Source: an uncultured Candidatus Saccharibacteria bacterium
Lineage (GTDB): Bacteria > Patescibacteriota > Minisyncoccia > Phycocordibacterales > UBA9973
DNA: 52,168 bases
Direction: 5' to 3'
NCBI GenBank assembly: GCA_964456475.1
Contig: CAYVZI010000002.1
Location: forward strand, 52,659 to 104,826
In this document: in pieces, positions 4,686 through 47,500 of the stretch
Numbering within the stretch: position 1 is the stretch's first letter
Layout of the letters: every line of letters starts with the position of its first letter
The notes under the pieces: generated by a model
The model's input: only the letters and a program-made list of their open reading frames with translations
Told to the model about the DNA's origin: nothing
Databases searched by the model: none
Made by a program: the position numbers and the translations under genes

Positions 4686-4810
4686 TAAAATTTTCAGAAA
4701 CAGATGCAGTTCGAGGCGCAAGCGAGACTTGTGACCAAAATGTACTCCTGGTACATTGCGGGAACAAACGAGAGAAGCAACAATGAAATGCGCTGTTTAT
4801 GGAAATTTTA
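4686..4810 (+). repeat. 125-bp structured dispersed repeat, copy 1 (overlaps pgk stop codon)
   Basis: Gap-free alignment to 47376-47500 (24 mismatches in 125) and 29556-29680; terminal arms taaaattttca/tggaaatttta. Confidence 0.9.
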
Positions 4811-5923
4811 CTTTAGTGCTTTAATTCCGGGAAGAGTCCCTTTTGCCATAAATTCTAGTGCGGCGCCGCCGGCAGTAGAGACGAAGGTAAATTTGTCGGC
4901 CATTTTCTTTTTTTCAACAAGCACTGCCGTATCTCCCCCGCCAATAATTGTCTCTCCTTTTGCCGAAGCGAGGAGTTTGATCACCTCTTCTGTTCCTTTT
5001 GTATATCCGCCTTCGTACCAGCCCATCGGTCCATTCCAAACGATGAGCTTAGCTTTCTTGATGAGGCCAGCAAGCGCATCAATACTTGGAAGTCCGATAT
5101 CAAAGATGGATTCAGTATGACGAATATCGTGTATAGAAACTGTCTGCTTTTTTCCGTCTCTTTCAACCACAACGCTCTCTGGAACTATCAGCTTTTTGTT
5201 TTTCAAAAGAGTTTTGAGAAGTGGTGCTTCTGAATCTACTTTTGATTTTCCAACGTCAATTCCTTCTGCACGTAGAAAATCATCCGCCAAACCTCCGCCA
5301 ATAAATACATGGTCCGCTTCCTTGAGATATTTTTTTAAAAGTGGAATCTTGGTTTCTGCTTTTACTCCGCCTTGGATAAAAAGAAATGGGTGCTTCGGTT
5401 TGAGAAGCTTTGAAAGTTCTTTCACTTCGCGCTCAAACTGGAATCCAGCATATGAAGGAAGGAGCTTCGGCAAAAGCACGGTTGAAGCATCCTCTCGGTG
5501 AGAGACAGGAAATGCCTCATTCACATAGATATCACCGAGCTTGGCGAGTGCAAGAGCAAAAAGCTTGTCTCCATCCTTCTCACCAGCCACACTACGCAAA
5601 TTCTCAAGCATAAGAACATCACCGTTTTTCATATTTCCGACAGCCTTTTGAGCTTCAATACCGGTAATGTCAGTAACGTAACAGAGTGGAAAATACTTTT
5701 TTAGTAACAAAAAAACGGGTTTCAATGTTTCTTCAGGTTCACGACCGATATGACTCACAAGAATTACTTTTGCTCCTTTTTTACGAAGGAAATCAATCGT
5801 TTTCTGAGCAACAGTAATACGTGTAGTATCGAGAACTTTTGTTCCATTCAGTGGAACATTGAAGTCTGTACGTACAATCACTCGTTTTCCTTTGATATTT
5901 TTTAGTTCTTTAACAGATTTCAT
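4808..5923 (-). CDS. pgk: Phosphoglycerate kinase
   Basis: RVIVRTDFNVP, SHIGR, LENLR, YVNEAF..SHR, GGVKAETK, WNGPMG, GGGDT, STAGGAALEF. Confidence 0.97.
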   Translation of the reverse strand: MKSVKELKNIKGKRVIVRTDFNVPLNGTKVLDTTRITVAQKTIDFLRKKGAKVILVSHIGREPEETLKPVFLLLKKYFPLCYVTDITGIEAQKAVGNMKNGDVLMLENLRSVAGEKDGDKLFALALAKLGDIYVNEAFPVSHREDASTVLLPKLLPSYAGFQFEREVKELSKLLKPKHPFLFIQGGVKAETKIPLLKKYLKEADHVFIGGGLADDFLRAEGIDVGKSKVDSEAPLLKTLLKNKKLIVPESVVVERDGKKQTVSIHDIRHTESIFDIGLPSIDALAGLIKKAKLIVWNGPMGWYEGGYTKGTEEVIKLLASAKGETIIGGGDTAVLVEKKKMADKFTFVSTAGGAALEFMAKGTLPGIKALK

Positions 5924-5926
5924 ATA

Positions 5927-6694
5927 CTAGAGCTCATTAGCAGCTTTTAAAATAGAAAGAAACGATTTTGGATTAAGGCTCGCGCGTCCAGGAAGAAGTC
6001 CGTCAACATGACCAGCCGAGAGAAATCCAGATGCACTCTTCTCGTCCACCGATCCTCCATAGAGGATGGTCACTGCTTCAGCATTCGCACCGCCGTACGC
6101 ATCAGTGAGTACTTTTCGAATGTACATATGCATCTCTTGGCAGTCCTCTGGTGTTGCATCACGACGATTCGTCGTCGTAGAAATAGCCCATACTGGCTCA
6201 TATGCAATAACGATTCTTGAAATCATATTCTTCGAAATTCCAATGAGGCATTCTTCAAGCTGAGTTTTTACCGTGCCGAGGTATATCATTCCATGATCAC
6301 GATCACGTTCACCGATACACAAAATCGGTGTAATCCCGACAGCAAGCAATTGCTTGATTTTTTTGTTTATAAATTCATTTGATTCACCAAGTTCACGTCG
6401 TTCTGAATGTCCCACAATACAATACGTTGCTTTCAAACCAGAGAGCATTGATGCTGAGACTTCTCCAGTATATGCACCCTCCTTTTCGGCCGACACATTT
6501 TGGGAAGCAAGTCCGAGTCCCGTAGATTTCAATTTTGAGAGCTCAGACAAGTACACAAAAGGAGCTGCTACTACAGCTTCTACATTCTTGAACGAACCAA
6601 CGCCTTTTTTAATAGCAGTAAACTGTGCACGAGCAAGGGCGACTGTTTTTGGGTTCATCTTCCAGTTACCCACAATGAGTTTTTTCTTTCGCAT
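5927..6694 (-). CDS. tpiA: Triosephosphate isomerase
   Basis: IVGNWKMN, GAYTGEVS, GHSERR, AYEPVWAI, LYGGSV; likely start MRKKK at 6694. Confidence 0.97.
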   Translation of the reverse strand: MRKKKLIVGNWKMNPKTVALARAQFTAIKKGVGSFKNVEAVVAAPFVYLSELSKLKSTGLGLASQNVSAEKEGAYTGEVSASMLSGLKATYCIVGHSERRELGESNEFINKKIKQLLAVGITPILCIGERDRDHGMIYLGTVKTQLEECLIGISKNMISRIVIAYEPVWAISTTTNRRDATPEDCQEMHMYIRKVLTDAYGGANAEAVTILYGGSVDEKSASGFLSAGHVDGLLPGRASLNPKSFLSILKAANEL

Positions 6695-6718
6695 ACTGTC
6701 CAGTATATCATACTGAAA

Positions 6719-6800
6719 AACTCTAAATACCAAATTCTAAGTCCTAAAAATGCCGACCCGAATCCTTTTTAGAGTTTAGTATTTAGGTTCTAGAGTTTGA
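6719..6800. repeat. Inverted 7-mer array without ORF (empty element)
   Basis: ctctaaa/attctaa/gtcctaa units facing ttagagt/ttagtat/ttaggtt units across a short spacer. Confidence 0.75.
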
Positions 6801-6802
6801 TT

Positions 6803-8611
6803 TTATTGTGTTTCCTTCCACGAATCCACAGTATACGAACCTGAAGGGCCAAGTACAAAGTTCACGTTCGCAAGACCGGTATCATAGGTCAAAGTTGCGC
6901 TATTAGACATGCTAATCCTGTAAGCTACAGCCTCCTTGGCACCAGCTGTGTTAGAAAAAGTGATTGTTCCATTTGGTGCTACAAGAATAACCGTACCTGC
7001 ACTGTTTGCAACATTAATAGCCGAAGATGACGATGAGGTGGTGAGCATCATCATATAACTACCCGTAGTACCTGACCCAGCGAATGCAGCCGAGTTTGAT
7101 GTTGAAACAGTACCATCAGAGATAATCATTCCACTTCCCGTTCCATATCCGGACGCGAGCTTCACGATAGCATTATTTGAGAGAACAATATTCCCCGTCA
7201 CCCAAAGCGTTCCCGACAACGTAAGCACGCCATTGTTACTGACATACAAATCACCAACAATCTTTTTTGGGCCAAGCGTAGCCGCAGAAGTACCAGAGAG
7301 CGAATAGCTACCAGTGAGAGTTCCACCAGCAAGTGCATCCGCCTTCCAGTCAGTTATTTGTGATGTTGAAATCGGAAAATTGAGCGGTGTTGGATCAGCA
7401 AGTGATGTATTACAACTCTTATTGTTTCCGCTTCCTGTTTGACAATAGAGGCTTCCTGCAATCGTTGACCCAGTGACTGTATGAGCCCAGGCATTACCTA
7501 CACTACCGGTTCCAATTGTCATTCCGCTAATAGTAGAGTTTACCCCACCGAGCGAGAGTTTGAAAAATCCATCGAGTCCAGATGGGCTCGTATTGTTCCA
7601 AGTGGTCGTTCCATATGTTCCCGTCTTTCCAAGACCGCTGGCATACCCAGCACTGTTTGCGCCCCAAATATAATAGTTTGAGGCATTTGCACTTCCATCG
7701 AGCACGACCCAGTATGTCGTACCGGCAGTAAGCGTCACGTTCGGAGAAAGTGCAACCGTTGCCCAACCATATGATGTAGTCACGGTCGATGCAGAAATTG
7801 TCCCCGTAGTAAGAGAACTTGATGAGGGCTTTCCAGAGGAATCACTGGTGATTCGCACAGTGAGATTACTCGGACTGCCCACTTTTTTTATATACACTTC
7901 CACCTGTGTGGCAGTATCAGAAATACTTGTTTGAAAACTCTGAGCTGCATCTTGTGTAGCAGAAGCATTCGCAAACGTAATCGAATGAGAGGGTGTACCC
8001 GTATCGTTGACTTGGTCAACGACTTGAGTGCTACGATCAGCGGCAAAAGCCGCTCCGGTGATTGAAGCACTCCCCGTTCCTGAAATATCACCATTCGCAT
8101 ATACATTACCGATAATCTGAGAAGAATTTGCCATAGAGAGTCCTCCATTCCCTACCTGCATACCATAGTTAAAAGAAACACCGGCTCCAGTGGTAACGAC
8201 GACATCGACAGCTCGATTGAAATCAGAGACATCACCAATACTGGTAATTTGTTTTTGTCCTCCGCTGAGATTGGTGATTGTCGTGACCGTCGAAGAACTT
8301 CCGAGCACAAGAGTAACACTCGAAGGTAGCGTCAAATTATTTTTCAAACGGTAGAATGCATCTTCGGCTCCAGACTCAGACAAAAAATAACTCTGTCGTG
8401 AAGTAAGAGCATCATTCGCAATTTTATACTCGCGAGCTGCCGGACCAGTGAGACCAAGAACAACAAGTACTGATGCCAAAATAAAGAAAATAAGCGAAAT
8501 CATCATCGCCGCTCCGCGCTCGTGGTTTGGTATTAGGTGTTTGGTGTTTGGTGATAGCTTATCCAAAACCATTTTTATTTTTTCTATGAAATTATTTTTT
8601 GAGTTTTGCAT
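6803..8611 (-). CDS. PilX/GspK-like minor pilin with large Ser/Thr/Gly-rich passenger (candidate adhesin)
   Basis: ERG|AAMMISLIF pilin-like helix lacking E5, FLSESGAEDA motif, last gene of the minor-pilin cluster, beta-rich C-terminus. Confidence 0.75.
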   Translation of the reverse strand: MQNSKNNFIEKIKMVLDKLSPNTKHLIPNHERGAAMMISLIFFILASVLVVLGLTGPAAREYKIANDALTSRQSYFLSESGAEDAFYRLKNNLTLPSSVTLVLGSSSTVTTITNLSGGQKQITSIGDVSDFNRAVDVVVTTGAGVSFNYGMQVGNGGLSMANSSQIIGNVYANGDISGTGSASITGAAFAADRSTQVVDQVNDTGTPSHSITFANASATQDAAQSFQTSISDTATQVEVYIKKVGSPSNLTVRITSDSSGKPSSSSLTTGTISASTVTTSYGWATVALSPNVTLTAGTTYWVVLDGSANASNYYIWGANSAGYASGLGKTGTYGTTTWNNTSPSGLDGFFKLSLGGVNSTISGMTIGTGSVGNAWAHTVTGSTIAGSLYCQTGSGNNKSCNTSLADPTPLNFPISTSQITDWKADALAGGTLTGSYSLSGTSAATLGPKKIVGDLYVSNNGVLTLSGTLWVTGNIVLSNNAIVKLASGYGTGSGMIISDGTVSTSNSAAFAGSGTTGSYMMMLTTSSSSSAINVANSAGTVILVAPNGTITFSNTAGAKEAVAYRISMSNSATLTYDTGLANVNFVLGPSGSYTVDSWKETQ

Positions 8612-8656
8612 ATATATGTATTTCTAAGACCAAAAACCTTACACCAAAAACCAGGG

Positions 8657-9181
8657 TTAATACCCCCCTCGAAGCACAATAGTATTATAAAGCGTAATAC
8701 TCTTCCCTGTTCCCGAACGAGTAGATTGTACTGTCATTTCAACTCGCACAGCAGTGTCGTTTGTAGTTACCACGTTCCGGAAAATGAGCGACGTGACGGA
8801 AACCTTACTTCCGGTCAAATCTCGCACAGTGCCGTCCGTACTGTCGGTTATCTGCAGCACTCCGCTTGAAAGGCCAAAACGTACTGTCTTTGCAGCACCG
8901 CTACTATCGAGAGAGTTAAGAAGCAATACTCCAGGACTAGTTGCAAAAGTACTTGATCCGGTATTTACACTCACTGCCCCGCGGATTTCACGAGTCATGC
9001 GCTCCATTGCTACTTGTCCGGAATCGAGAAGGTCGTTGTTGATTCGCGTTCCATTGTAGCCCTTCATCATTCCCAAAAGCGATCCTATAAGCATGGCAGA
9101 AATTGTAATAAACAAAGCGCAATACAAGAGTACTTCGATTATCGTAAAACCAGATGATTGTGGAAGAGAAGACTTAATCAT
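8657..9181 (-). CDS. Type IV minor pilin (PilW/GspJ-like)
   Basis: SG|FTIIEVLLY prepilin motif; MERMTREIRGA. Confidence 0.88.
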   Translation of the reverse strand: MIKSSLPQSSGFTIIEVLLYCALFITISAMLIGSLLGMMKGYNGTRINNDLLDSGQVAMERMTREIRGAVSVNTGSSTFATSPGVLLLNSLDSSGAAKTVRFGLSSGVLQITDSTDGTVRDLTGSKVSVTSLIFRNVVTTNDTAVRVEMTVQSTRSGTGKSITLYNTIVLRGGY

Positions 9182-9189
9182 TGTAATAA

Positions 9190-9732
9190 CTAAAAGATAT
9201 TTAAAATATAAAATTGCAGTGATTTTGAAACAGTAGCGCCGGTGTTTTCAACCCACGAAACAGTCACCGTCACCAATTTTGTACCCGAGTCAGTTGTTCC
9301 AGAGCTCGCGATATTACTCGAACCATCACGTGTTACCGCCGAAAGGACGACTGATCGAGTATATTTACCCACAACGCCATCAGATGAGGTAGTCGTTAGA
9401 CTCCATGTATTTGCACCTGTATTGTATTTTGGATAATACGTCGTACCGACAGTTAGACCAGAAATGTTTGTCCAAGCACCATCTCTTTGGATTCGAACAA
9501 CCTCAGCCCCTTCTTCTAGAAGAGCTGCTGCCTCATATGTGTTGACCGAACGATGTGAGATAGACAAGGCCTGGCCTGCAACCACAATAACGGAAAGTAA
9601 CGAGACTGTCAGAATCGAACTCGCAACCAAAATCTCCACAAGACTGAATCCTCGCTCGCGTGAAGTATGTATGAATTGAAAGCCTTTCAACCCGGATTTG
9701 TTTTTTTGAATTGTATTTGTATTTTTTTGCAT
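9190..9732 (-). CDS. Type IV minor pilin (PilV/GspI-like)
   Basis: RG|FSLVEILVA prepilin motif; C-terminal KLVTVTVSW. Confidence 0.88.
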   Translation of the reverse strand: MQKNTNTIQKNKSGLKGFQFIHTSRERGFSLVEILVASSILTVSLLSVIVVAGQALSISHRSVNTYEAAALLEEGAEVVRIQRDGAWTNISGLTVGTTYYPKYNTGANTWSLTTTSSDGVVGKYTRSVVLSAVTRDGSSNIASSGTTDSGTKLVTVTVSWVENTGATVSKSLQFYILNIF

Positions 9733-9757
9733 CCGCTTTACAAACTTTACAAACTTC

Positions 9758-10243
9758 TTAGTTACCGCTTGCGATCCCAGTCTTCGATAGCGTGATAGTC
9801 TTTTGGCCGACGGTCGTAGTACTGTCTTTTATTACAATCGTGCCGTATTGATTTGTATCACCAGTCATCTGTGCAAATACAACATCAGTTCCACCTCCTG
9901 CAATCGATACAACTGTGGCGATTCCACTCGGCAATGCAACTATCTTGTTTGTACTTGCGCTCGAATACGTACTGCCCGTAAACAATTCCAAACTACTACT
10001 TCCCACTCGAACCCCGTATTGATTTCCACCATCTGCAGAAAGTGTTCGAGATCGTGCTTCGTTCAATAGAGCTATAGATACGTCGACGGAATTATCGATT
10101 TTCTGTTTTTTTGCAAATGAACTTACTTGCATCGCAACAATTGTAGAAATGACCACAATAATCGTAACCCCAATCAGAGTTTCAATGAGAGTAAATCCGT
10201 TTATTCGTTTTGTATTCGTGTACATATGCTTTTTATTATACAC
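9758..10243 (-). CDS. Type IV minor pilin (FimT/GspH-like)
   Basis: NG|FTLIETLIG prepilin motif; LLNEARSRTL. Confidence 0.88.
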   Translation of the reverse strand: MYNKKHMYTNTKRINGFTLIETLIGVTIIVVISTIVAMQVSSFAKKQKIDNSVDVSIALLNEARSRTLSADGGNQYGVRVGSSSLELFTGSTYSSASTNKIVALPSGIATVVSIAGGGTDVVFAQMTGDTNQYGTIVIKDSTTTVGQKTITLSKTGIASGN

Positions 10244-10261
10244 AATACGGAAATGTAATTG

Positions 10262-11476
10262 TTATCCAATCGCACTTACCAAGCCATACATTGGTGAAAT
10301 CATCGAAATAGCGAAGAACCCTACAGCTCCACCGATAAACACCATGAGCACTGGCTCAATAATAGTCGACATATCCTTGGTCTTTGCGTCGACTTCCTCT
10401 TCATAATAAATCGCAATATCAGAAAGCATCTGTGAAAGCGCACCTGTCTCCTCCCCCACAGCAATCATTTCACCCATCATTACAGGGTACAAGTCTTGAT
10501 TGTCTTTAAACACGGAAGAAAGAGATGAACCTTTTTGCACGGCGAGATTAGCTTTTTCAATAACTTCTCGATAGTGCACATTTTGCAAAACTTCCTTGGT
10601 GATTGTGAGAGCACGAGTCATCTCCACACCAGAAGTAAGGAGCGTGGAGAGCGTTCGTGCCGTACGAGCTGTATTTACTTCTTTAATAAGCATACCTATT
10701 GCTGGAAGTTTGAGTGTTAGGGCATCAATTTTTGGTTTCAATTTTTCAGACCGGAAGATATACATTCCTCCGACGACAATCACGCCGACGACACCCAAAA
10801 ATATGAATGGGTGATTTGCCACCGAATCCGAAATGAAGATGACAAACTTGGTTGATGCAGGCAAAGCGGTTCCGAATTCTTTAAAAATCTTGGTGAGTGT
10901 CGGCACCACAAACATGAGCATAAGTGTAGCGATAATAAAGATAGCCGCGACGATAATTGACGGATACATCATCGCACTTTTAATTTTGCGATTGAGGTCG
11001 TATGTCTTTTGTAAATTGACACCGATATCACCGAGTGTGTTGGATAGATTTCCTGACTCTTCTCCGGCACGCACCATTGAGACCATTAGCGGACTGAATA
11101 CTTTTGGAAATTTTGCAAAACCATCCGAAAGAGTCCCACCCTTGTCTATTGTAGAAAGCAGTCCAACAAACACATCCTCGAGAGCAGGATTTTTATTTTG
11201 CTTCTTGAGTACCTCAATTGCACGAAAGAGCGGCAGTCCCGCCTTGAGCATTCCGGCAAGATTATGTGTAAAAATTATTTTTTCATGCAACTTTACTTTG
11301 CCAAAAAACTTGGCGAATTTGTCCGAAAAACTCACTTCTGTTTTGATTTCAGTCAGCGAAAGAGGCAAGATCCCTCGATCGCGCAATTCTTTGGCTGCAG
11401 TAAACCGACTCACTGAGTCAATCACGCCTTGTAAAGTTTTTCCTTGCGCATCACGCGCAGTATAAGTAAATTGCAT
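10262..11476 (-). CDS. pilC: Type IV pilus platform protein PilC (T2SS F family)
   Basis: LAGMLKAGLPL, AGEESGNL, KIKSAMMYP, VGEETGAL, IIEPVLMV. Confidence 0.96.
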   Translation of the reverse strand: MQFTYTARDAQGKTLQGVIDSVSRFTAAKELRDRGILPLSLTEIKTEVSFSDKFAKFFGKVKLHEKIIFTHNLAGMLKAGLPLFRAIEVLKKQNKNPALEDVFVGLLSTIDKGGTLSDGFAKFPKVFSPLMVSMVRAGEESGNLSNTLGDIGVNLQKTYDLNRKIKSAMMYPSIIVAAIFIIATLMLMFVVPTLTKIFKEFGTALPASTKFVIFISDSVANHPFIFLGVVGVIVVGGMYIFRSEKLKPKIDALTLKLPAIGMLIKEVNTARTARTLSTLLTSGVEMTRALTITKEVLQNVHYREVIEKANLAVQKGSSLSSVFKDNQDLYPVMMGEMIAVGEETGALSQMLSDIAIYYEEEVDAKTKDMSTIIEPVLMVFIGGAVGFFAISMISPMYGLVSAIG

Positions 11477-11480
11477 AAAT

Positions 11481-11901
11481 AAAATCTAAGTCCTAAATTC
11501 TAAAACCTAAAGAGAACTGGCTGTTTTTGTTACTATCGCACCAAGAATTTTCATCAATTCGGTATTTTCTTGTACTATAATGTTTTTTTCATTCAAAAAA
11601 TTCCCTTCTTCAATTAAATCAAGCCAAAATATGGACTCTTTGGCTTCCTTTCGACAAATTTTGACCCTCATCAAAAAATCTTTTCTACTCAACGATTCCG
11701 CGGCTTCAATAAAGTTGGCTCCGATTGATGCAGACGATCGAATTAATTGTTTAGAATATTCCAGATTACTTTGAGAGCGCGGAATCAATTTTAAAAAATC
11801 ACGTACTGTTTTTGCAAATACTCTTGTCCTATCTTCTAGTTTATATTGTTTAGGCTCGGTTTGCATTCTTTAGAATTTAGAACTTAGGATTTAGAATTTT
11901 G
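11481..11901 (-). mobile_element. Four-helix-bundle cassette flanked by inverted 7-mer arrays, between pilB and pilC
   Basis: Left aatctaa-gtcctaa-attctaa-aacctaa; right ttagaat-ttagaac-ttaggat-ttagaat; mobility is inferred only. Confidence 0.55.
11507..11866 (-). CDS. Four helix bundle protein (TIGR02436 / 23S rRNA IVS-protein-like)
   Basis: KQLIRSSASIGANFIEA, SRKDFLMRVKICRKEAKESIFWL. Confidence 0.92.
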   Translation of the reverse strand: MQTEPKQYKLEDRTRVFAKTVRDFLKLIPRSQSNLEYSKQLIRSSASIGANFIEAAESLSRKDFLMRVKICRKEAKESIFWLDLIEEGNFLNEKNIIVQENTELMKILGAIVTKTASSL

Positions 11902-11922
11902 AAGTTCTCCGTGTTATTTCCG

Positions 11923-13680: not shown

Positions 13681-13780
13681 AACTATATACATATAGTATA
13701 TCAACAAAACACAAGAACATGAAAACAAAATTAAAAAAACCTTACACGAATGTGTAAGGTTTTTTACTAACGAACAGAAG

Positions 13781-15016
13781 TTAATAAGGAAACATTTTTC
13801 CGGCACGCGGATTAGCCCAAACATAGTTTCCTTCATCTTGAGATGATCGACAATACTGGTATGGAGTGATTGTGCCTTCGTTTTGATAATAGTTATCACG
13901 CCAACCTGAACCTGGTCCTGCCCAAAGCCAGTTGCCTGAGAGAGATGTCGAACTGGAGAGGCCTGCACAAGCACGATACGGTTGACCAGCAGTACCACTG
14001 CGAGCGTCACCTTGTGGCACAACCATGTACATAGTATTAAACGCATAATCACCTGGGTGTTTACAATTCGTACCGTCCTGACGACAGACGCTCTGTCCGC
14101 CAACGGTGAGGTTTCCGCTGATATCTGCATTGCCAGTGACAGAGAGTTGGTTCGAAGGAGCTCCTCCTGCACCGAGACGAAGACCTGTTGAAATGATTCC
14201 AACGCCAGATACATATAGATTTCCACGACCATTAATTACTCCATCCACATCAAGCTTATGAAGTGGTGCAGCGACTCCGATACCGACAGATCCAGTATTG
14301 TTGCTGTAAATATTTGCACCAGAAACTGTCCATGGACCAGCTCCTGTTGTTGTGCCTGTTCCTGTACTTGTTGGACATCCTGCTCCGCTTTGATTACAAA
14401 CAGGATAGCCTCCTACATAGAGCCAGTGCTTTGTTGTAGTTGGATTTGATCCAAATGGACCCTTCACCACAACCTGTCCGTCAAAAACTGCTGCGGCACG
14501 ACTGAAGCGATATCCAGCTGGAACACTTTCAGAATCTGGACCATCAACATACAACATTGGTGCTGGTGTACCCGATGCCGAAGTGTAGATTGATGATGAT
14601 AGTGCACCGATTGAGGTTACACCTTGCAAGAAAGTTGATCCCCAGTTTGAAAATCCAGTCGTATCAGTGATTCCGTTTACTGTAAGTGCTGAACCTGGAG
14701 TCCATCCTGAAGTTGGCATTGGACAAGGAACAGATCCGAGTGTGAGCTTACCTGGTTTCCATTGTGCTGTTCCGCTTACATTCACTGGTGCAGCAACATT
14801 GCCTCCCGGTGCGAGTGGTGTACTTCCTGGTGCAGTCCATGTCGAACCCGAACCAGATCCACCTCCACAAGGATCAGTATATGTAGTAGTTGCCGTAGCA
14901 CCCCCAGAGGTCGTACCACTACCGATTGGTCCGGCCGCTCCTACTACCCCAGCCATTCCGAGAATGACACTGAGTGAGAGAACTATTTTTGCACTGTTTG
15001 TAATTGTAGCTTTCAT
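13781..15016 (-). CDS. Secreted fibre-like surface protein
   Basis: N-terminal signal/anchor; GNVAAPVNVSGTAQ, SVGIGVAAPLHKLDVDG fibre-type repeat; Cys-containing C-terminal module. Confidence 0.75.
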   Translation of the reverse strand: MKATITNSAKIVLSLSVILGMAGVVGAAGPIGSGTTSGGATATTTYTDPCGGGSGSGSTWTAPGSTPLAPGGNVAAPVNVSGTAQWKPGKLTLGSVPCPMPTSGWTPGSALTVNGITDTTGFSNWGSTFLQGVTSIGALSSSIYTSASGTPAPMLYVDGPDSESVPAGYRFSRAAAVFDGQVVVKGPFGSNPTTTKHWLYVGGYPVCNQSGAGCPTSTGTGTTTGAGPWTVSGANIYSNNTGSVGIGVAAPLHKLDVDGVINGRGNLYVSGVGIISTGLRLGAGGAPSNQLSVTGNADISGNLTVGGQSVCRQDGTNCKHPGDYAFNTMYMVVPQGDARSGTAGQPYRACAGLSSSTSLSGNWLWAGPGSGWRDNYYQNEGTITPYQYCRSSQDEGNYVWANPRAGKMFPY

Positions 15017-16684: not shown

Positions 16685-16686
16685 AA

Positions 16687-24796: not shown

Positions 24797-25390
24797 ATAA
24801 GCAAGAAAGTTCATTGATTAGGTGATTCGAGAAAAGTGCGGAGCAGTGAATGGTCAGGGGAGCCAAAAATCGCCATAACTAAGAACTGCTACGAGGAGAG
24901 CTTCTCTCGCATCATGTTTCCAAGATGGAGGCACAAGAATACAGGCTGGAAACCCATATTACTTCTGCCGTTACCCCATCACATCGGACACCAAACAGAT
25001 CCACCAAGGATTCGTTAGGACATCCAGTGAAAGAAAGAGACTAACCCCCTTTTGCTTTCACAAATGTCTTTGCGAAGGAGCTTCGTAACAAAGAGGAGAG
25101 AGAACTACTTTGAAACGAAGAGTATAGATGAAGGAGAGAGACCTGCACTATAGCAAAGAAGTGAACCTTAAAAACTAAACATGCCCGGAGACAATACTCG
25201 CGAAAGCGTATTATTTACTCCGGCAGATTCTGCACAAAACACAAACCTGTCATTCCGGAGTACACATCCGGAATCCATGCGTATTTTGTTGTGTGTAGAT
25301 ATGTTCCGTAAAGAAATTCGCGGAGTGCATAGTTGTTTTAGTTCTTTCAGAACGCCAGCATGGTTTTCTGAAAGAACTAAAACAAAAAAT

Positions 25391-25579
25391 ATGGAAAAAA
25401 TAATATTCGTAATACTGTTTCTAGTTATAGGGATAGTATTTACTATAGCCTCAATCATGGGGCTATACAAAATATGTAATAGGGTGCCCAGCAAGGCACC
25501 ACCATTCCCCGAAATATACGGGGAAACGAAAATTGGCCGAATTCTGGCCAATATAATATCCCTTGTTATTGGGATATAG
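25391..25579 (+). CDS. Small membrane protein, array 1 ORF1
   Basis: MEKIIFVILFLVIGIVFTIASIMGLYK..., ATG follows a 20-bp stem and A-rich tract. Confidence 0.6.
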   Translation: MEKIIFVILFLVIGIVFTIASIMGLYKICNRVPSKAPPFPEIYGETKIGRILANIISLVIGI

Positions 25580-25680
25580 GCGTTCATTGTTTGCTTTAAT
25601 ATTTAGCAGTATAGCAATGAACATTTGTCCCCGGATGACACAAACTGCCGGCGGTCTGATTTCTGCGAGAAGAAATCGAT

Positions 25681-25763
25681 GGGTAAAAAGGGTAAACATA
25701 TTCCCCGATTGGAAACAATCGGGGCCTTATTCAGCTCACGAAATTTTCGTTGGCTGATTGGGA
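25681..25763 (+). repeat. Intergenic module A (partial: hairpins 1 and 2)
   Basis: ccccgattg/caatcgggg then cttattcagctcacgaa..tcgttggctgattggga. Confidence 0.85.
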
Positions 25764-25859
25764 GGAAAGCCAAAATGTGCAAGCCTGTCGTGTACCGCGC
25801 CGACATAAAAAAAGCGGGATAGTAATACGTGTGCGAAGATCAGTACCACACTTACTCGA

Positions 25860-26690
25860 ATGGAAAGCAACTCGATATATTGCTTTTGCGGCGCCATGTC
25901 CAAGAAAAATACATGGCAACAATTCCGAGGCTCTCATATCGGGAGGTCAAACCAAACCCAGGCTCGGCTGGTGATTTTATTTATGACACAGTCATCAAAT
26001 ATTTTCGGAAAAAAAGTAGTTATTAGTAAAAAATCCCAAGAAATTGGGAGATATGTTAATTACAAAATTCAAATCGGGAGCGACGACCCGATTTTTGTTT
26101 CGAAGGATGCCGCCCGACAAGGACGGTGGTCCTTCGACACAAAAAGTTTTTTCAAAGGGGGTTCTTCCCCTTTGGACCAAGACGAATTGGAGATCATTCT
26201 CCAATTCGTAAAATTCTTAATCGTCTTCCAAGCGTATGAGTATACGCTTGGAACAAGGAGGAATTTCCTCCTGTCAGTAGAGACCACTGGGGTCGAAAAG
26301 GCCTCCGACGGTTACCATGACTTTGACTACCGAAAGGAAGTTAAGCTGGAGTCGGTAAACTCCAATTGGGGCAGCCGCTCCGCAATGAGTATCTACGCCC
26401 AATTCGACGGTCATGTGACCAACGAAGGAGGCAATCAATTGTTGGAGCGGTATTATTCGGCTCCAATACCTTTTATCAATATGACGCTTCAGGCAACTGA
26501 AGAGTCAATGATACGAAGGCTCGGTGAGCCAATCGGTCAAATGGAAATCTTTAACCCTCGGCCGAGGGAAAAGGAATACATTGAAAACTTCGGCACGGCC
26601 GAAGTAATTGATGGAAACAACCCGCTGGCAACGGCGTGGTTTGTTTTAAAAATTTTGCCAACATACTATATGTTGGCAAATATGAGGTAG
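25860..26690 (+). CDS. Hypothetical protein, array 1 ORF2 (start may be 25986)
   Basis: 276-aa open frame; family not recognised. Confidence 0.6.
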   Translation: MESNSIYCFCGAMSKKNTWQQFRGSHIGRSNQTQARLVILFMTQSSNIFGKKVVISKKSQEIGRYVNYKIQIGSDDPIFVSKDAARQGRWSFDTKSFFKGGSSPLDQDELEIILQFVKFLIVFQAYEYTLGTRRNFLLSVETTGVEKASDGYHDFDYRKEVKLESVNSNWGSRSAMSIYAQFDGHVTNEGGNQLLERYYSAPIPFINMTLQATEESMIRRLGEPIGQMEIFNPRPREKEYIENFGTAEVIDGNNPLATAWFVLKILPTYYMLANMR

Positions 26691-26846
26691 GGGTTTAGGG
26701 TTACAAAAAAAATGGCTCCGATTTTCTAATCGGAGCCCTTATTCAGTTCACGAAGCAATTCGTTGGCTGATAGGGATTCATACCTAGAATTTTGGTTCAC
26801 TTAGTTTTTCAATTTTGGAAAGTTAAGTGAACCAAAATTTAATAAA
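26691..26846 (+). repeat. Intergenic module B (hairpins 1, 2, 3)
   Basis: ggctccgatt/aatcggagcc; cttattcag..ctgatagg; aattttggttcactta/taagtgaaccaaaatt directly before ATG. Confidence 0.9.
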
Positions 26847-27071
26847 ATGTTGATCAGAAAAATCCACCTGTATAAGGTGGAACACCGCTACCACCATAGT
26901 GTAGCGGGATATTTAAATGGGCCGAGATCCTATTGGACAGCCCTGAAACCCGACCTCAGCCGGGTGTACGTAGTTGAGGAAAAAAACGACACCCTCGTAA
27001 GAGGGTGGGTTTGGTTTGTATTTGGGGCACTAGCCTCAGGCGCTGTTTGCTTTTTGACAGCAAACATCTAA
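26847..27071 (+). CDS. Small protein with C-terminal TM helix, array 1 ORF3
   Basis: 74 aa, ends WVWFVFGALASGAVCFLTANI. Confidence 0.6.
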   Translation: MLIRKIHLYKVEHRYHHSVAGYLNGPRSYWTALKPDLSRVYVVEEKNDTLVRGWVWFVFGALASGAVCFLTANI

Positions 27072-27162
27072 CCATCTGTCACCGAATGACATTAACTGCC
27101 GGCGCGTATTCTGAAATTGCGAGAAGTGAGTAAGAAAAGTACAAACTCAAAAATTTATTGTG

Positions 27163-27696
27163 ATGAACAAGAAAATTTTTAGTTTTGATGCCGAGACCAA
27201 CGGTCTTTGGGGCCGGGCGTTTTCGATTGCCGCTATCGTCTATGACGAGAACGGTGCGGAGACGATCCGCTTCATTGGCCGGTGTCCAATCGAAGGCGAA
27301 ACAAACAGCTGGGTAGCTGAAAATGTTTTGCCAAAGATGATGGACATCGCCGAGTCTCACGGCTCGTATGATGAACTGCTAAAAGCTTTTGCGGATTTTT
27401 ACAAATCCAACAAAGCCGATGCAGATATCATTGTGCATATGGGCGTGCCTGTGGAGTCAACACTTCTCAAGGATACTCATAGCCGTGGGTATATCGGCGA
27501 TTGGGACGGTCCGTTCCCCCTCATCGACATTGCAGGCAATCTGCAACAAGCCGGTGAGAATCCTACTTCAGTCGACGAATACGTCGCCAAGTATGGATTG
27601 GAGGTGCGCGATTTTGGCACGACACACAACCCGCTGTATGACAGCGAAGTTGCTGCAGTAGTGTATCGCCACCTTCAGGGACGGATTACTCAGTAA
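27163..27696 (+). CDS. DnaQ-like DEDDh 3'-5' exonuclease
   Basis: FSFDAETNG ExoI, PLIDI, THNPLYD ExoIII. Confidence 0.8.
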   Translation: MNKKIFSFDAETNGLWGRAFSIAAIVYDENGAETIRFIGRCPIEGETNSWVAENVLPKMMDIAESHGSYDELLKAFADFYKSNKADADIIVHMGVPVESTLLKDTHSRGYIGDWDGPFPLIDIAGNLQQAGENPTSVDEYVAKYGLEVRDFGTTHNPLYDSEVAAVVYRHLQGRITQ

Positions 27697-27762
27697 TCGG
27701 TCAGGCATTTGAGTGAGACTCCGAGCATGATACCAGCTTGGGAACAGAAGGTATCACAATAA

Positions 27763-27920
27763 GGGGTTACGGGTTATCGTATTTCCCCGATTGAGTAATC
27801 AATCGGGGCCTTATTCAGCCCACGAAATTTTCGTGGGCTGATAGGGATTGCTTACTTTCTGGTTGTTTTAGTTTTTTCAGAATGCCTAATTGGTTCTTTG
27901 AGAAAACTAAAACAACAAAA
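27763..27920 (+). repeat. Intergenic module C (hairpins 1, 2, 3)
   Basis: ccccgattg/caatcgggg; cttattcagcccacgaa/ttcgtgggctgatagg; gttgttttagtttt/aaaactaaaacaac before ATG. Confidence 0.9.
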
Positions 27921-28202
27921 ATGAAAGAAAGATCAATGAGCGAACTTGAATTCGCTCAGATAGTTTTTGAAAATGGGCTCTTTCTAGAGAGTCCATTAAA
28001 TTCAAAATCCTTTATGGCAGAAAATGCCACAGAGGAGAGCAAGGTGACTGAGAAACATGGGTGCTTCTCGTTTATGGGATCAATATACTTGATCTCATTC
28101 TCGGTTTCCTACGGGGAACCGAGTAAATCATGCAATCCCAGCAGTGGGTATTGCAAGGAGACAAAAATAATATCCGAGATTACCCGGATTATTTTACCCT
28201 AA
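27921..28202 (+). CDS. Hypothetical protein, array 1 ORF5
   Basis: 93-aa ORF starting MKERSMSELEF after module C. Confidence 0.55.
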   Translation: MKERSMSELEFAQIVFENGLFLESPLNSKSFMAENATEESKVTEKHGCFSFMGSIYLISFSVSYGEPSKSCNPSSGYCKETKIISEITRIILP

Positions 28203-28358
28203 GGGTTACTATGGTTTAAAAAACGGCCGAACAGAATATCGTTCGGCCTCTTATTCAGTCCGCGAAGCAATTCGTTGGCTGATAGGAATTCATACCTATA
28301 ATTTTAGTTCACTTAGTTTTTCAAGTTTGGAATATTAAGTGAACTAAAATTCAAAAAT
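28203..28358 (+). repeat. Intergenic module D (hairpins 1, 2, 3)
   Basis: ggccgaac/gttcggcc; cttattcag..ctgatagg; aattttagttcactta/taagtgaactaaaatt before ATG; closely similar to module B. Confidence 0.9.
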
Positions 28359-28544
28359 ATGAAAAACACAAAGCAACTTAAAAACGCGGCTTACAATGCT
28401 GCGTATGAAATTATTTCCTCAAGTTATTTTTTTGAGGGAACAAAAATTTTGGCTATGAAAGTAGCCAAAGATACAGGTTACAGGTATTGGTACAGCCAAT
28501 ACTTAAAAGCCTACTACGATTGCAGGCGAGAAAATGCCTCGTAG
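28359..28544 (+). CDS. Small Tyr-rich hypothetical protein, array 1 ORF6
   Basis: 61-aa ORF immediately after module D, followed by gggttgggtta and a terminator-like hairpin. Confidence 0.55.
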   Translation: MKNTKQLKNAAYNAAYEIISSSYFFEGTKILAMKVAKDTGYRYWYSQYLKAYYDCRRENAS

Positions 28545-29555: not shown

Positions 29556-29680
29556 TAGAAATTTCAGAGACGAGTACAGTTCAAGGCGTAAGCGAGGCTT
29601 GCGACCAAGGTGTAGTAATCCTACTCCGCGGGAGCAAACGAGCGAAACAACGAAGAAATGTGCCGTATATGAAATTTCTA
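29556..29680 (+). repeat. 125-bp structured dispersed repeat, copy 2 (rny leader)
   Basis: Perfect 11-bp terminal arms tagaaatttca/tgaaatttcta; colinear with the other copies. Confidence 0.9.
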
Positions 29681-29707
29681 ATCTAAACGGCTGGCTGGTC
29701 GTTTACC

Positions 29708-31237
29708 ATGTCTACATTTACTATATTGCTGATTGCAGCAGGCGCCCTCGTAGCGGGTCTTTTTTGCGGATACTATCTCCGCAAGATCACCGCGCTTGGA
29801 CAGCGTCGCTCAATCGAAATCGACATCAAACAGATGTTGGTTGGTGCCAAAGAAGAAGCGGCTCGCATCACTGATGAAGCCAAGAAAAAAGCTGAGGAAA
29901 CCGAATCTGACCTTCGTATGATGGAACGTCAGAAGAACGAAGACTTCAAAAAGACGGAAGATCGCTTGATTAAAAAGGAAGAATTGCTCGATGCTCGTCA
30001 AACCGAAATCGACAAGGAAACCGAGCTCCAAAAGATGAAGATCGAGGAGATCAAGAAGATCAAAGAAAAGGGCGACGCCATGCTCGCAGAGCGTGTTGCC
30101 ACACTCGAAAAAGTAGCTGGTCTTTCACGTGAAGACGCAAAAAACGAACTCGTTCGCGAAATCGAACGCGAGTCTGAAGAAGACCTCATGATTCGCATGC
30201 AGAAGCTTGAGCAAAATTCTCAAGAACGCATGGATCGCCGTGCAAAGGATATCCTTGCAACCTCTATCCAGCGTCTCGCCTCTTCGACTGCAGCTGAGAT
30301 TATGACGACCAACGTCGCCATCCCATCTGACGACATCAAGGGCAAGATCATTGGAAAGGAAGGACGCAACATTCGCGCATTCGAACGCGCAGCCGGTGTT
30401 GAACTCATCGTCGATGAAACTCCTGGAGTCATCATCATTTCAGCCTTTGATCCTGTACGCCGACAAATCGCTCGCGTCGCTCTTGAGAATCTCATTCTCG
30501 ATGGACGCATTCAGCCAGCCAAAATCGAAGAAGTGGTAGAAAAAGCCAAGGAAGACATCAATAAGATCATCAAAGAAAAGGGTGAGCAGGCAGTGTACGA
30601 ATGTGGAATCTTCAATTTCGACCCACGCATCATCGCCATCTTGGGACGCCTCTACTTCCGCACATCATACGGACAAAACGTGCTTCAGCACTCAATCGAG
30701 ATGACACACATTGCCGGAATGATTGCCGAAGAGCTCGGTGCCGACGTTGCAATCGCCAAGCAAGGTGCACTCGTACACGACATCGGAAAAGCGCTCGACC
30801 ATGAAGTACAAGGTACGCACATCGATATCGGTATCCGCATCCTCCAGAAATTCGGTGCTGATCCTCGTGTGATTCAAGCAATGAAATCTCACCACGACGA
30901 CTGTCCACATGAAACAATCGAAGCCGTAATCGTGCAGACTGCCGACAATATTTCCGGCGGACGCCCAGGTGCACGACGCGACAGTGTTGAGAACTACCTC
31001 AAGCGCTTGCACGAAATGGAAGCACTCGTAAACGCTTTCCCAAATATCGACAAGTCATACGCGCTCTCTGCCGGCCGTGAAATCCGCATCTTCGTCACTC
31101 CAGAAAAAGTCACCGATGTCGAAGCAAAAGAAATGGCCCGTGAGATAGCGAAGAAAATGGAAACTGAACTCAAGTACCCAGGCGAAATCAAAGTGACGAT
31201 GATAAGAGAGACTCGAATCATCGAGTACGCCCGTTAG
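29708..31237 (+). CDS. rny: Ribonuclease Y
   Basis: N-terminal TM, coiled coil, KH domain (GKIIGKEGRNIR), HD domain (LVHDIGKA), YPGEIKVTMIRETR. Confidence 0.98.
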   Translation: MSTFTILLIAAGALVAGLFCGYYLRKITALGQRRSIEIDIKQMLVGAKEEAARITDEAKKKAEETESDLRMMERQKNEDFKKTEDRLIKKEELLDARQTEIDKETELQKMKIEEIKKIKEKGDAMLAERVATLEKVAGLSREDAKNELVREIERESEEDLMIRMQKLEQNSQERMDRRAKDILATSIQRLASSTAAEIMTTNVAIPSDDIKGKIIGKEGRNIRAFERAAGVELIVDETPGVIIISAFDPVRRQIARVALENLILDGRIQPAKIEEVVEKAKEDINKIIKEKGEQAVYECGIFNFDPRIIAILGRLYFRTSYGQNVLQHSIEMTHIAGMIAEELGADVAIAKQGALVHDIGKALDHEVQGTHIDIGIRILQKFGADPRVIQAMKSHHDDCPHETIEAVIVQTADNISGGRPGARRDSVENYLKRLHEMEALVNAFPNIDKSYALSAGREIRIFVTPEKVTDVEAKEMAREIAKKMETELKYPGEIKVTMIRETRIIEYAR

Positions 31238-34760: not shown

Positions 34761-34788
34761 TTGCATTATTGTCCCCCACAGCTATAAT
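34761..34788 (+). promoter_or_regulatory. Promoter candidate for hup
   Basis: TTGCAT-N16-TATAAT. Confidence 0.55.
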
Positions 34789-34915
34789 ACGCTTAGTTTT
34801 AAGCACTTACCTTAAAACGTATACGTTTACTAGCTCGGTCGAATTTTAGTTTCGTTTTTCTTTTTGCAAGAAGAAAAACGTTAGGAATTTTTGAAAATTA
34901 ATTCCTCTATAGTTT

Positions 34916-37152: not shown

Positions 37153-37196
37153 ACGGAACCCTCGTCTACCTGTTATTTTTTAAAAAAGAAATTCTC

Positions 37197-37233
37197 CCCA
37201 AAACAAGTATACTACCGATATACTACGCCCCGA
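37197..37233 (-). pseudogene. Duplicated 5' half of tRNA-Pro
   Basis: 37 bp with 1 mismatch to 37117-37153; breaks at the anticodon loop. Confidence 0.85.
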
Positions 37234-37319
37234 AGACCTCGATAATATAGCAGTATTAAGGCATAAAGACAAATCCAAAATCTTCTGCTATAGTGCGACC
37301 AAACAAAAACCCTTTTAAG

Positions 37320-37820: not shown

Positions 37821-37857
37821 AAACTGGAAAAACACCAACAAATTGGTGTTTTTTTAT

Positions 37858-45770: not shown

Positions 45771-45867
45771 CAAAACATACTCTTGCGAAACACGAAAATC
45801 CCTTGCTAGGGATTTTCTCCTTTCAGCGCCAGTCGCGCTTGCAGAGGTTTCGCAAGAGTATGTTTTG
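45771..45867. repeat. Long branched palindrome after rpsO
   Basis: 21-bp perfect arms caaaacatactcttgcgaaac/gtttcgcaagagtatgttttg enclosing gaaaatccct/agggattttc. Confidence 0.8.
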
Positions 45868-46054
45868 ACTCCGCAGAGTCGGTAGCCCGAATACAAACCC
45901 TTTTGTGTTACACTTATTATGTTCTCTTTTTCATAAGTCGTGTTCAATTTTTTATAAGTCGAATTATTTTAATAACAATTTAGATCATTAGGCACTAGGC
46001 TCTAGCAGAAAATCTGCATTCCCTAAATCCTAATTATCTAGAGCCTAATTTTCT

Positions 46055-46573
46055 ATGAGTATAATTAAACATCCGGATCAGCGTGTCGCCGTTTTTATCG
46101 ACACGCAAAACATCTATCACAGTGCCCGCAATCTCTATAAGTCGTACGTAAACTTCGGTAATGTCTTAAAGGAAGCCATTGCCGGACGCAAACTCATTCG
46201 TGCCGTTGCTTATGTCATTACCTCTGAAGCAGGGGATGAGAAAGCGTTCTTTGATGCACTCACCAAGGTTGGAATCGAAACCAAAACCAAAGACCTCCAG
46301 GTGTTCTCGAGTGGCGCAAAGAAAGCCGACTGGGACGTAGGTCTCGCAGTCGACGCAATCAAAATGTCTCACAAAGTCGATACGGTCATCATCATCTCCG
46401 GCGATGGCGACTTCATCCCGCTTGTCGAATATCTTCAGATGAACGGAGGGACACAGGTCGAAGTCGTAGCCTTCGGCAAATCAACTTCGATGAACCTCAA
46501 AGAAGCCTGCGACGACTTCCTCGACCTCTCTGAAAATCCAAACAAATATCTCATGCGTGCGGGGCGACGCTAG
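46055..46573 (+). CDS. NYN domain (LabA/DUF88, PIN-like) protein
   Basis: VFIDTQNI, KKADWDVGLAVD, ISGDGDFIPL, VEVVAF. Confidence 0.92.
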   Translation: MSIIKHPDQRVAVFIDTQNIYHSARNLYKSYVNFGNVLKEAIAGRKLIRAVAYVITSEAGDEKAFFDALTKVGIETKTKDLQVFSSGAKKADWDVGLAVDAIKMSHKVDTVIIISGDGDFIPLVEYLQMNGGTQVEVVAFGKSTSMNLKEACDDFLDLSENPNKYLMRAGRR

Positions 46574-46588
46574 TCGCAAATTAGGAAT

Positions 46589-46634
46589 CGACATGTACTC
46601 ATGTCGTCCCAGACTTGATCCGGGATCCACGAAT
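46589..46634 (+). repeat. REP-like element, inverted partner of 51181-51226
   Basis: 46 bp, 2 mismatches to the reverse complement of 51181-51226. Confidence 0.85.
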
Positions 46635-46711
46635 CTGATCTGAATGAAGAATAAAAATACCTTTAGAAATAAGGGTATTTTTTGACGCAGGAAAAGAATC
46701 TGGAAAAATGC

Positions 46712-46740
46712 TTGACAAAATCAAGTTAAGATGCTATCAT
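46712..46740 (+). promoter_or_regulatory. Strong sigma70 promoter
   Basis: TTGACA-N17-TATCAT with extended -10 TG. Confidence 0.75.
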
Positions 46741-46746
46741 ATATTT

Positions 46747-47245
46747 AATTCGGTTACCTTCATTTTTGAAGAGTAACTGAAGGCATCGAGGATCCAACGA
46801 GAGATGTGCCACTGCGCCATCAATTTTTGACCTCATTCGTTTTGCCGGAGGTGGATTGCACAGCAGTGCAATATTACCTGCCAGGTGTTGGATTGCCGGA
46901 TGGAAACCGGTGGGAAGTATTCCCGAAGTCATCAACTGAGTTCCCGTTTTGTTCTTTCCTTTCTTGAAAAATAAAAAAGGAAAATCAAACCACGTAATGT
47001 TGATGTCCCGGACAGAGCGTCCAAAATCGGTAGCCTAATAGAAGGGTAGGCTCGCACCACGGAGTGCAATACTGATGAGGAGTGCAGCGTGTGCTTAATA
47101 AAGATTTCTTTCGTTTTTGTGAAAAGAAAAGCTGCAAAAGCATCATTGCTCAACAATGGGAAAGAAGTTGTTGAGAAGTTTGCGGGAAAAACCTGCAAAG
47201 CATACTAAAGAGCCATCCGGGTAAAACTGGATGGCTCTCTTACAT
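46747..47245 (+). ncRNA. Candidate structured non-coding RNA of about 490 nt
   Basis: Bounded by the promoter and a terminal hairpin (gagccatcc/ggatggctc); many short stems; no convincing ORF. Confidence 0.4.
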
Positions 47246-47375
47246 TTTAGATGTACTTTTTTGGGATTTAGAGTAGAATCGAATTGGGCGACATTATTAC
47301 ATAATTGTTCGCGTTCGGACGTATAGAATTGCATTAGATTGGCAATTTTACGGTCCGAATACGAACTCTAACTCA

Positions 47376-47500
47376 TAGAACTTACAGAGGCGGATGCAGT
47401 TCACGACGCGAGCGAGGCTTGTGACTAAAATGTACATGGGGTACATTGCGGGAACAAACGAGCGAGGCAACAAAGAAATGCGCCGCATATGGAAGTTCTA
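47376..47500 (+). repeat. 125-bp structured dispersed repeat, copy 3 (pnp leader)
   Basis: Arms tagaacttaca/tggaagttcta; ends 8 nt before the pnp ATG. Confidence 0.9.

Follow-up and report, generated by a model that had tools for sequence, protein, structure and literature searches.

A probable miniature transposable element with a strand-specific, G·A-rich structured core in Parcubacteria and related Patescibacteria

The 52,168-nt stretch of contig CAYVZI010000002.1 analysed here ("the window" in what follows; coordinates are window positions unless a locus label of the type L042 stands before them) contains three gap-free direct copies of a 125-nt repeat, all of them on the plus strand: one at the end of pgk, one immediately before rny and one immediately before pnp (Table 1), the last two being the genes of RNase Y and PNPase. 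A preliminary description of this DNA had left the choice between a mobile element, of MITE (miniature inverted-repeat transposable element) or REP type, and a cis-regulatory RNA by which genes of RNA decay are placed under feedback control. The repeat is most probably the former: a non-autonomous transposable element of ~125 bp, that is, a MITE, native to Parcubacteria and related Patescibacteria.

The case for mobility begins with the ends. The element is small and non-coding, it has terminal inverted repeats and a target duplication of fixed length, and it exists in many dispersed copies. The recently active copies share the end consensus TAGGACKTACGC...GCGTAMGTCCTA (that is, TAGGACKTACGC with its complement), and the terminal T, the terminal A and the fifth base are retained in 51-58 of 66 copies. 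Perfect 5-bp direct repeats (the preliminary description had proposed a check for target-site duplications) flank 14 of 66 copies, with a 4/5 match in 7 more; when the left flank of one copy is instead paired with the right flank of another, the corresponding frequencies are 0.5% (5/5) and 4.2% (4/5). These duplications (TTAAA, TTATT, ACAAG, AAACT and TCTTG are examples) are direct repeats of variable AT-rich sequence lying outside the TA termini, and not extensions of the palindrome.

The same ends are recovered by a search that is blind to what they enclose. When nothing is specified but TA..TA ends, inverted repeats of 12 nt and a 5-bp duplication that is exact, all collected loci together yield 18 elements, every one of them with TAGGACKTACGC ends: 16 have the G·A core that is described below, one is a 178-nt variant (L115), and one, at L042 1181-1312, is something else again. 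This 132-nt element is bounded by terminal inverted repeats TAGGACGTACGCACTTGG and by a TTTAT duplication; its interior is unrelated and has GGGAATCC hairpins, and in four groundwater runs its depth is 15-60x the flank depth. Common ends around an unrelated interior imply that the outer stem of the repeat is its terminal inverted repeat and that the G·A rod is cargo. (A note on the same locus: L042 2936-3040 is a further high-copy repeat, at ~33x depth, that begins with the same left end; it holds a 31-bp perfect hairpin with a AATCCAGAG loop motif, which is also found in the loose ends of many contigs.)

Strains also appear to differ in the copies that they carry. In run X30, a co-occurring strain is without L042 copies 2 and 3. 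In run X2, a relative that is 94% identical to the window over the start of rny has 125 nt upstream of that gene, against 263 nt in the window, and its spacer, shorter by 138 nt, contains no match to the element even at 80% likeness. A clean empty site with a single copy of the target was not recovered at these sites of absence, whose junctions are diverged.

The family is not confined to the window. A 20-base core pattern, scanned against one genome per bacterial and archaeal species, occurs at 63 loci in 30 assemblies, and the labels of these assemblies are nearly all Parcubacteria, Nomura-, Taylor- or Kaiserbacteria, Paceibacterota, Patescibacteria or Saccharibacteria. Each assembly has several detected copies, up to 10 by the strict pattern (VMGT01 has 7 loci with 9 pattern matches, and JAHFNO01 has 7 loci); copy numbers derived from the strict pattern and from contig depth are lower bounds. 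A covariance model built on 57 full copies finds 74 matches in the pattern loci and the window, 6 of which, more diverged, had escaped the pattern. By this distribution, the window belongs to a genome of Parcubacteria type. The read data, which are unstranded assembled Logan contigs from metagenomes, give a ratio of element depth to flank depth of 5-6x in X1 (wastewater, containing the window organism), 9-20x in X2 (wastewater) and 12-28x in X27-X30 (groundwater, containing L042), and Logan contigs are interrupted within the element. A separate observation concerns L003 (CAYHPW010000116.1), a 2.8-kb element-bearing contig that is labelled Bacteriovoracaceae, all other loci being Patescibacteria or unlabelled: the label probably reflects mistaken binning and not a real presence of the element beyond Patescibacteria.

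Is the family a known one? Rfam 15 at gathering score, applied to the window and to 15 other element-bearing loci, returns only tRNAs, and relaxing the threshold to E<=10 for copy 1 returns no match on the element (weak matches at 4600-4750 stem from the pgk terminator hairpin). Two core patterns find no match in viral contigs, and the literature searched on MITEs or structured RNAs in Patescibacteria, and on the core sequence, contains no matching description. The element is classed here as a new MITE family in Parcubacteria and related Patescibacteria.

What lies between the ends is unusual. Each window copy folds as a single long imperfect hairpin (-37.1, -41.9 and -41.7 kcal/mol, with z scores of -4.5 to -5.3 relative to dinucleotide shuffles, none of which folds equally well), and 10 of the 41 predicted pairs are altered on both sides among the three copies. 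The preliminary description had seen this covariation in the window, and its particulars are accurate: the three gap-free copies and their coordinates, the arm and inner-stem variants that it quoted, the 27 nt and 8 nt separating two copies from the rny and pnp starts, and the pgk stop codon supplied by the remaining copy.

The outer stem, P1, has ~17 bp with TA at both termini and is highly variable in sequence across the family. In P2, TGCA-G-TTC is paired with GAA-A-TGCG, with one G·A mismatch and a conserved U·G pair. The well-conserved core that follows (~55 nt) is a rod in which GA occurs four times on the 5' strand, opposite GA or GAA on the 3' strand, and the tip is a variable hairpin. 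Each GA-loop motif is present in 49-57 of 57 copies, with the exception of the 3' motif opposite the first loop, which is GAA in 31 copies and AAA in 23. The motifs of the rod include the C-GA-G/C-GA-G context, which forms sheared tandem G·A pairs.

The alignment of the 57 full copies, from which the structure statistics come, has standard pairs in 95.6% of its cells, compared with 82.3% when partners are shuffled and 29-41% when partners are slid; 32 of 42 pairs have double-sided changes (332 cells), and none of 500 shuffles reaches any of these measures. The plus strand folds more stably than its complement in 53 of 57 copies (mean -51.2 vs -44.3 kcal/mol), and across the family there are 72 G·U against 30 A·C, leaving out the conserved U·G. 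By its compensatory change and its strand specificity, this is a structured single-stranded element, whether as RNA or as DNA. Its size is 121-129 nt, with long variants of 167-196 nt; L012, L025, L032, L047 and L059 have an additional hairpin module, and in L043 one is replaced. In the diverged subfamilies L084, L090 and L106, the core sequences differ and the long-range helix is kept by compensated changes, and for that reason the rod is preferred over a local hairpin, CGCGAGC-GAG-GCTTGCG, that would take the place of the long-range core pairing (L043 has another hairpin at that stretch).

Two other candidates for what the interior might be were considered and set aside. A K-turn at the junction of P2 and the core would have a register that clashes with the covarying P2 pairs (this is an argument from reasoning only). 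A small protein could be read from a frame that crosses the consensus, but indels of 1-3 nt at the tip break this frame; since tip lengths vary by amounts not divisible by three, no reading frame can be conserved.

Where do the copies lie with respect to genes? Gene calls were made by a simple rule based on open reading frames (ORFs). Taking the plus strand of the element as reference, the upstream and downstream genes are both opposite in 26 copies, same and opposite in 13, opposite and same in 11, and both same in 10. Between co-directional genes, the element is antisense in 26 cases vs sense in 10 (two-sided binomial ~0.01). Of 67 copies, 49 have their plus strand on the C-rich strand, and the strand opposite to the plus strand carries 59% of the coding bases within 4 kb. 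In 21 of 67 copies the element finishes, at its 3' end, between -4 and +5 nt from where a convergent gene has its stop codon, as at pgk. The neighbours are a varied company: 124 flanking ORFs give 136 Pfam families. Searching for a terminator or promoter of the element's own brings nothing: no conserved promoter or terminator is found at its ends, where the flanks are AT-rich and have no consistent T-tract, and an intrinsic terminator or internal promoter was rejected as a candidate function because no promoter or terminator call falls on the element.

Placed among so many gene boundaries, the copies before rny and pnp lose much of their apparent meaning. They are in sense orientation, 27 and 8 nt before their genes; rny has a copy in L060 also; and the 3' half of copy 2 is joined to rny in Logan contigs, unstranded and informative on neither direction nor ends, of runs presumed to be RNA. 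These are the points in favour of a cis-acting leader RNA exerting feedback control on rny and pnp, which, even as a local role, is very improbable. PNPase is a neighbour of the element in the window alone. RNase Y genes adjoin the element in 4 loci of the first set, and in L013 and L058 the element is downstream of rny, directly before hup; among 80 rny loci fetched for comparison from metagenomes (577 kb), 4 carry the element, each time next to hup, and none has it upstream of rny. The X2 relative is without the rny copy, and only 22 of 62 copies run in the same direction as the gene that follows them. As a general role, feedback control of RNA-decay genes is therefore largely refuted, and a link with rny and pnp is no general property of the element: many copies stand at unrelated gene boundaries, which the preliminary description had named as what would make that link chance. 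The copy before rny is a partial reprieve: because it is common to the window and L060, it may have a lineage-specific leader role. Two further alternatives fare no better. An independently transcribed small RNA gene, or a self-cleaving ribozyme, in many copies would account for a conserved core between covarying stems and for a strand-specific fold that is indifferent to the direction of host genes; with ends that lack a conserved promoter or terminator and flanks that are merely AT-rich, with no Rfam ribozyme or small RNA match down to E<=10 on copy 1, and with target duplications and common ends around different interiors indicating DNA transposition, it is very improbable. Least probable of all is a REP/BIME-type element moved by RAYT (TnpA-REP) acting on single-stranded hairpins, a suggestion to which the palindromic repeat, the one-strand fold and the GC-skew bias of orientation lend some color: at 125 nt the element is three to five times as long as a REP unit, neither GTAG nor CGTC stands at its head, target duplications of a fixed 5 bp do not belong to that mechanism, and no HUH transposase was found among the scanned neighbours. 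Of the two original alternatives, the MITE/REP-like element is the one supported (by terminal inverted repeats, 5-bp duplications, dispersed copies, the same ends around a different interior, and presence or absence in strains); from REP elements proper it is set apart by length, head and duplication.

Several observations weigh against a purely selfish MITE and are gathered here. In 145 collected loci, no transposase-bearing element with matching ends was found, and a search with a hidden Markov model of element halves, together with a search for ends only, found in the same loci no halves or end pairs bracketing a transposase-sized insert. (Paralogous ORFs lying between the L042 copies were considered as transposases and rejected; they encode VWA-domain or unknown proteins.) The ends of 28 old copies have moved 48% away from the active consensus, and their duplications have decayed, yet divergence in the 5' core of these copies amounts to only 4.7%; the 5' core is outside the search pattern, and since the pattern requires an intact 3' core, some ascertainment bias remains. 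The outer stem of these old copies is 88% paired, and the figure drops to 59% if its two arms are drawn from different copies. Such retention of core and outer-stem pairing is left unexplained by a purely selfish, decaying MITE. The one-strand fold is found in every context class (copies antisense to both neighbours have 30 G·U and 9 A·C), and asymmetry in all gene contexts implies that the direction of host transcription is not the factor that selects it. The window and L060, which are distant species, have the copy before rny in common: the left flank is conserved, the core is ~90% identical, the outer stem is changed with compensation, and an N-terminal stretch of the L060 RNase Y is 68% identical to the window protein. 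The element also recurs next to hup. It lies in sense orientation 8-22 nt before the hup start in L013, L049, L058, L090 and L106, where divergence of the core is itself compensated and the surrounding GC is 38% and 57%; with 3 further copies in other arrangements, hup is adjacent in 8 loci altogether (L012, L013, L049, L058, L084, L090, L106 and L115). The genes gyrA (L010, and L026 with a copy at each end), gyrB (L017) and topA (L009) adjoin the element as well. Together with hup they exceed expectation among the neighbours, which, with ~800 genes per genome assumed, is well under one among 124 flanking ORFs; the category of topology genes is a post hoc choice, and orthologous copies cannot be counted as independent.

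If the rod is only cargo, why has it been kept so well? One suggestion is that the host has co-opted as a structural module what a MITE has spread, which would supplement the transposition reading rather than replace it. The rod could then be a binding platform or a cruciform for nucleoid and topology proteins (HU, gyrase), or it could be a leader or trailer hairpin setting mRNA stability; copies before hup and, in some lineages, before rny and pnp would be retained by regulating those genes. The observations just listed speak for it: in old copies the core is about ten times better conserved than the ends while the outer stem stays paired, the orthologous hup-preceding copies hold their helix by compensated core changes, the rny copies of the window and L060 have conserved flanks, and hup is a repeated neighbour, along with gyrA, gyrB and topA. 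There are also analogies, in the E. coli REP325 RNA that is reported to act with HU on cruciform DNA (PMC4550694) and in the IHF site of Correia elements (PMC10969869). Against it stand the absence of the element at 44 of 52 hup matches and 76 of 80 rny loci, the close relative in X2 without a copy before rny, the post hoc choice of the topology genes, the ability of gene conversion among copies to imitate purifying selection, and the fact that the chromosomal role of REP325 with HU has been questioned (bioRxiv 10.64898/2026.03.23.713779). Co-option of some kind is a tentative possibility. Its more explicit form, in which the rod, cruciform or single-stranded, is a structure-specific site for proteins such as HU and gyrase, the hup copies provide autocontrol of HU, and the rny, pnp and gyrA copies are lineage-specific leaders, is somewhat more doubtful.

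(A technical note on hup leaders: those without the element (L065-L138; in the window, ~34770-34915) mostly have a TATATAAT-like box, a hairpin and a AGGTCGAA motif, the last of which is conserved and located 30-70 nt before the start codon. The rny leaders of the window (at 29697-29701) and of L060 contain GGTCG too. The arrangement of box, hairpin and AGGTCGAA may be a separate conserved leader motif.)

Under the MITE reading that is preferred here, the life of the element would run as follows. A transposase acting in trans would recognise the TA-ended inverted repeats, and a cut with a 5-bp stagger in AT-rich spacers would produce the duplicated target. Insertions would persist where they do least harm, at gene ends and in the short leaders of compact genomes; a TAG or TAA terminus can act as a stop codon, which would aid insertion at gene ends, as at pgk. 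The interior cargo is the one-strand rod, with its four tandem G·A loops, its conserved U·G pair and its variable tip. The positions in the window before rny and pnp and after pgk would then reflect tolerated sites of insertion and not a link to RNA decay. A transcribed copy should form a stable 5' or 3' hairpin, like Correia, ERIC and REP elements, possibly with an effect on mRNA stability or translation; any such effect, whether in the leaders of rny and pnp or in the trailer of pgk, would follow from position rather than from a dedicated decay-gene circuit.

Table 1. Copies of the element in the window, parts of copy 2, and adjoining genes and hairpins
Feature	Position	Strand	Remarks
Copy 1	4686..4810	+	Antisense to pgk, between pgk stop codon and pgk terminator
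Copy 2	29556..29680	+	Sense to rny, 27 nt upstream; rny ATG at 29708
Copy 3	47376..47500	+	Sense to pnp, 8 nt upstream; pnp ATG at 47509
Copy 2, P1 5' arm	29556..29573	+	Left terminal inverted repeat; begins TA
Copy 2, P2 5' strand	29575..29582	+	TACAGTTC; includes conserved U·G pair and G·A mismatch
Copy 2, conserved core, 5' half	29583..29608	+	AAGGCGTAAGCGAGGCTTGCGACCAA; three of four GA dinucleotides intact, the fourth is AA
Copy 2, variable apical hairpin	29609..29627	+	GGTGTAG-TAATC-CTACTCC
Copy 2, conserved core, 3' half	29628..29654	+	GCGGGAGCAAACGAGCGAAACAACGAA
Copy 2, P2 3' strand	29655..29662	+	GAAATGTG
Copy 2, P1 3' arm	29663..29680	+	Right terminal inverted repeat; finishes TA
pgk	4808..5923	-	tpiA next
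rny	29708..31237		Downstream of copy 2
pnp	47509..49656		Downstream of copy 3
Terminator-like hairpin with T-rich tail	4647..4670	-	Serves pgk; copy 1 separates it from the pgk stop
Small hairpin	29685..29704	+	AAACGGC...GGTCGTTT; between copy 2 and rny start; counterpart in L060; read directly from the sequence

The window copies themselves are not among the freshest. Copies 2 and 3 are 74% and 81% identical to copy 1, the covariance model scores the three at 134.7, 140.2 and 135.0 bits in their order, and the same model finds no fourth copy in the window. The 5-bp flanks match at only 2-3 of 5 positions. All three copies are old insertions, whose target duplications have decayed and whose ends have drifted with compensation. 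The pgk stop codon (TAA, minus strand) is formed by the final 3 bases of copy 1, TTA at 4808-4810, and the placement of this copy between the stop codon and the terminator is how an insertion at a gene end would be expected to look. In run X4 a contig of a related strain extends from the upstream flank of copy 3 into the element.

The window has other repeats and neighbours that merit recording. Upstream of copy 3 and pnp, at a distance of ~0.8 kb, is a gene for an NYN-domain (PIN-like nuclease) protein, 46055-46573. Another repeat, 44-49 nt long, is found at 42893-42939 (+), 46586-46634 (+) and, inverted, at 51181-51230; it consists of two adjacent hairpins, CGACATG..CATGTCG and TCCCRGA..TCCGGGA. 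The copies at 46586 and 51181, which are 94% complementary, bracket 4.5 kb containing copy 3 of the element, pnp and two more genes, and a XerC/D-like tyrosine recombinase is encoded on the minus strand between the copies at 42893 and 46586 (44420-45478). Finally, 25332-28372 is a duplicated module with a 123-nt direct repeat (26738-26860 and 28250-28372, 86%) and with repeats of 51-69 nt at 25332/27862 and 25713/27797 that contain perfect hairpins.

Patescibacteria have genomes that are among the smallest and most streamlined of bacteria. To our knowledge, few mobile or regulatory non-coding elements have been described in them. A MITE family that is present in many of their lineages, at tens of copies per ~1-Mb genome, is a useful marker of strain variation and, by the same token, a practical source of broken assemblies; it also matters for gene annotation in that it supplies stop codons and occupies leaders and trailers. 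The main value of the analysis is nevertheless negative: adjacency to the RNase Y and PNPase genes is not to be taken for a feedback circuit of decay genes. Specialists may find more to interest them in the strand-specific core, in the long-kept old copies and in the recurrence beside hup and topology genes. If the host does use the one-strand core, it would offer a rare handle on the control of genes and nucleoid in bacteria that are not culturable alone, and the HU/gyrase reading, if true, would describe a REP/HU-like system built on a different element, in bacteria for which hardly any regulatory RNA or DNA elements are known.

How does the family compare with the small palindromic elements of other bacteria? 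The Rickettsia palindromic elements are a precedent for MITE families that are long-lived in small, streamlined genomes. They are often inserted in frame within genes; the Parcubacteria copies are instead intergenic or abut stop codons. High densities of MITEs have been noted in endosymbionts and in DPANN archaea, in a large survey whose main text does not mention Patescibacteria (PMC11602168). With REP/BIME elements the family has in common its dispersal as extragenic palindromes at gene ends. Binding of gyrase by REP elements has been proposed. The possible tie of the present element to HU and gyrase brings to mind such proposals, themselves disputed, for REP elements. Links of REP elements to HU and IHF, and to 3' mRNA stability, have been proposed (PMC4550694; bioRxiv 10.64898/2026.03.23.713779), and their units, of 20-40 bp with a GTAG or CGTC head, are moved by RAYT without target duplication (PMC3733652). 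An element of 125 nt, with TA termini and a 5-bp duplication, does not have the features that define a REP.

The ERIC and Correia elements come nearer. ERICs are imperfect palindromes of ~125-127 bp, located in transcribed intergenic regions and conserved across genera, of which orientation-dependent effects are to be expected; in Yersinia, ERICs at 3' ends alter mRNA decay through RNase E (PMC10969869). The Parcubacteria element differs in phylum and sequence, and in having a clear 5-bp duplication and an alternative interior between the same ends. Correia elements (CREE/NEMIS) of Neisseria are MITEs of 100-155 bp with terminal inverted repeats around a conserved core and many intergenic copies. 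They are often co-transcribed with their neighbours into long RNA hairpins, a likeness that for the present element extends to the predicted fold, and IHF binds them, while RNase III cuts or protects them (PMC2649163, PMC10969869). The hosts of the two are different, and tandem G·A loops on one strand mark the rod-shaped core of the Parcubacteria element. The duplicated target is TA for Correia elements and 5 bp, outside the TA termini, for the Parcubacteria family, which sets it apart from CREE; no resemblance of sequence to the Correia inverted repeat was noticed, no formal comparison having been made. Judged by these likenesses, the element appears to be closest in its working to the Correia and ERIC elements, while being a member of neither family.

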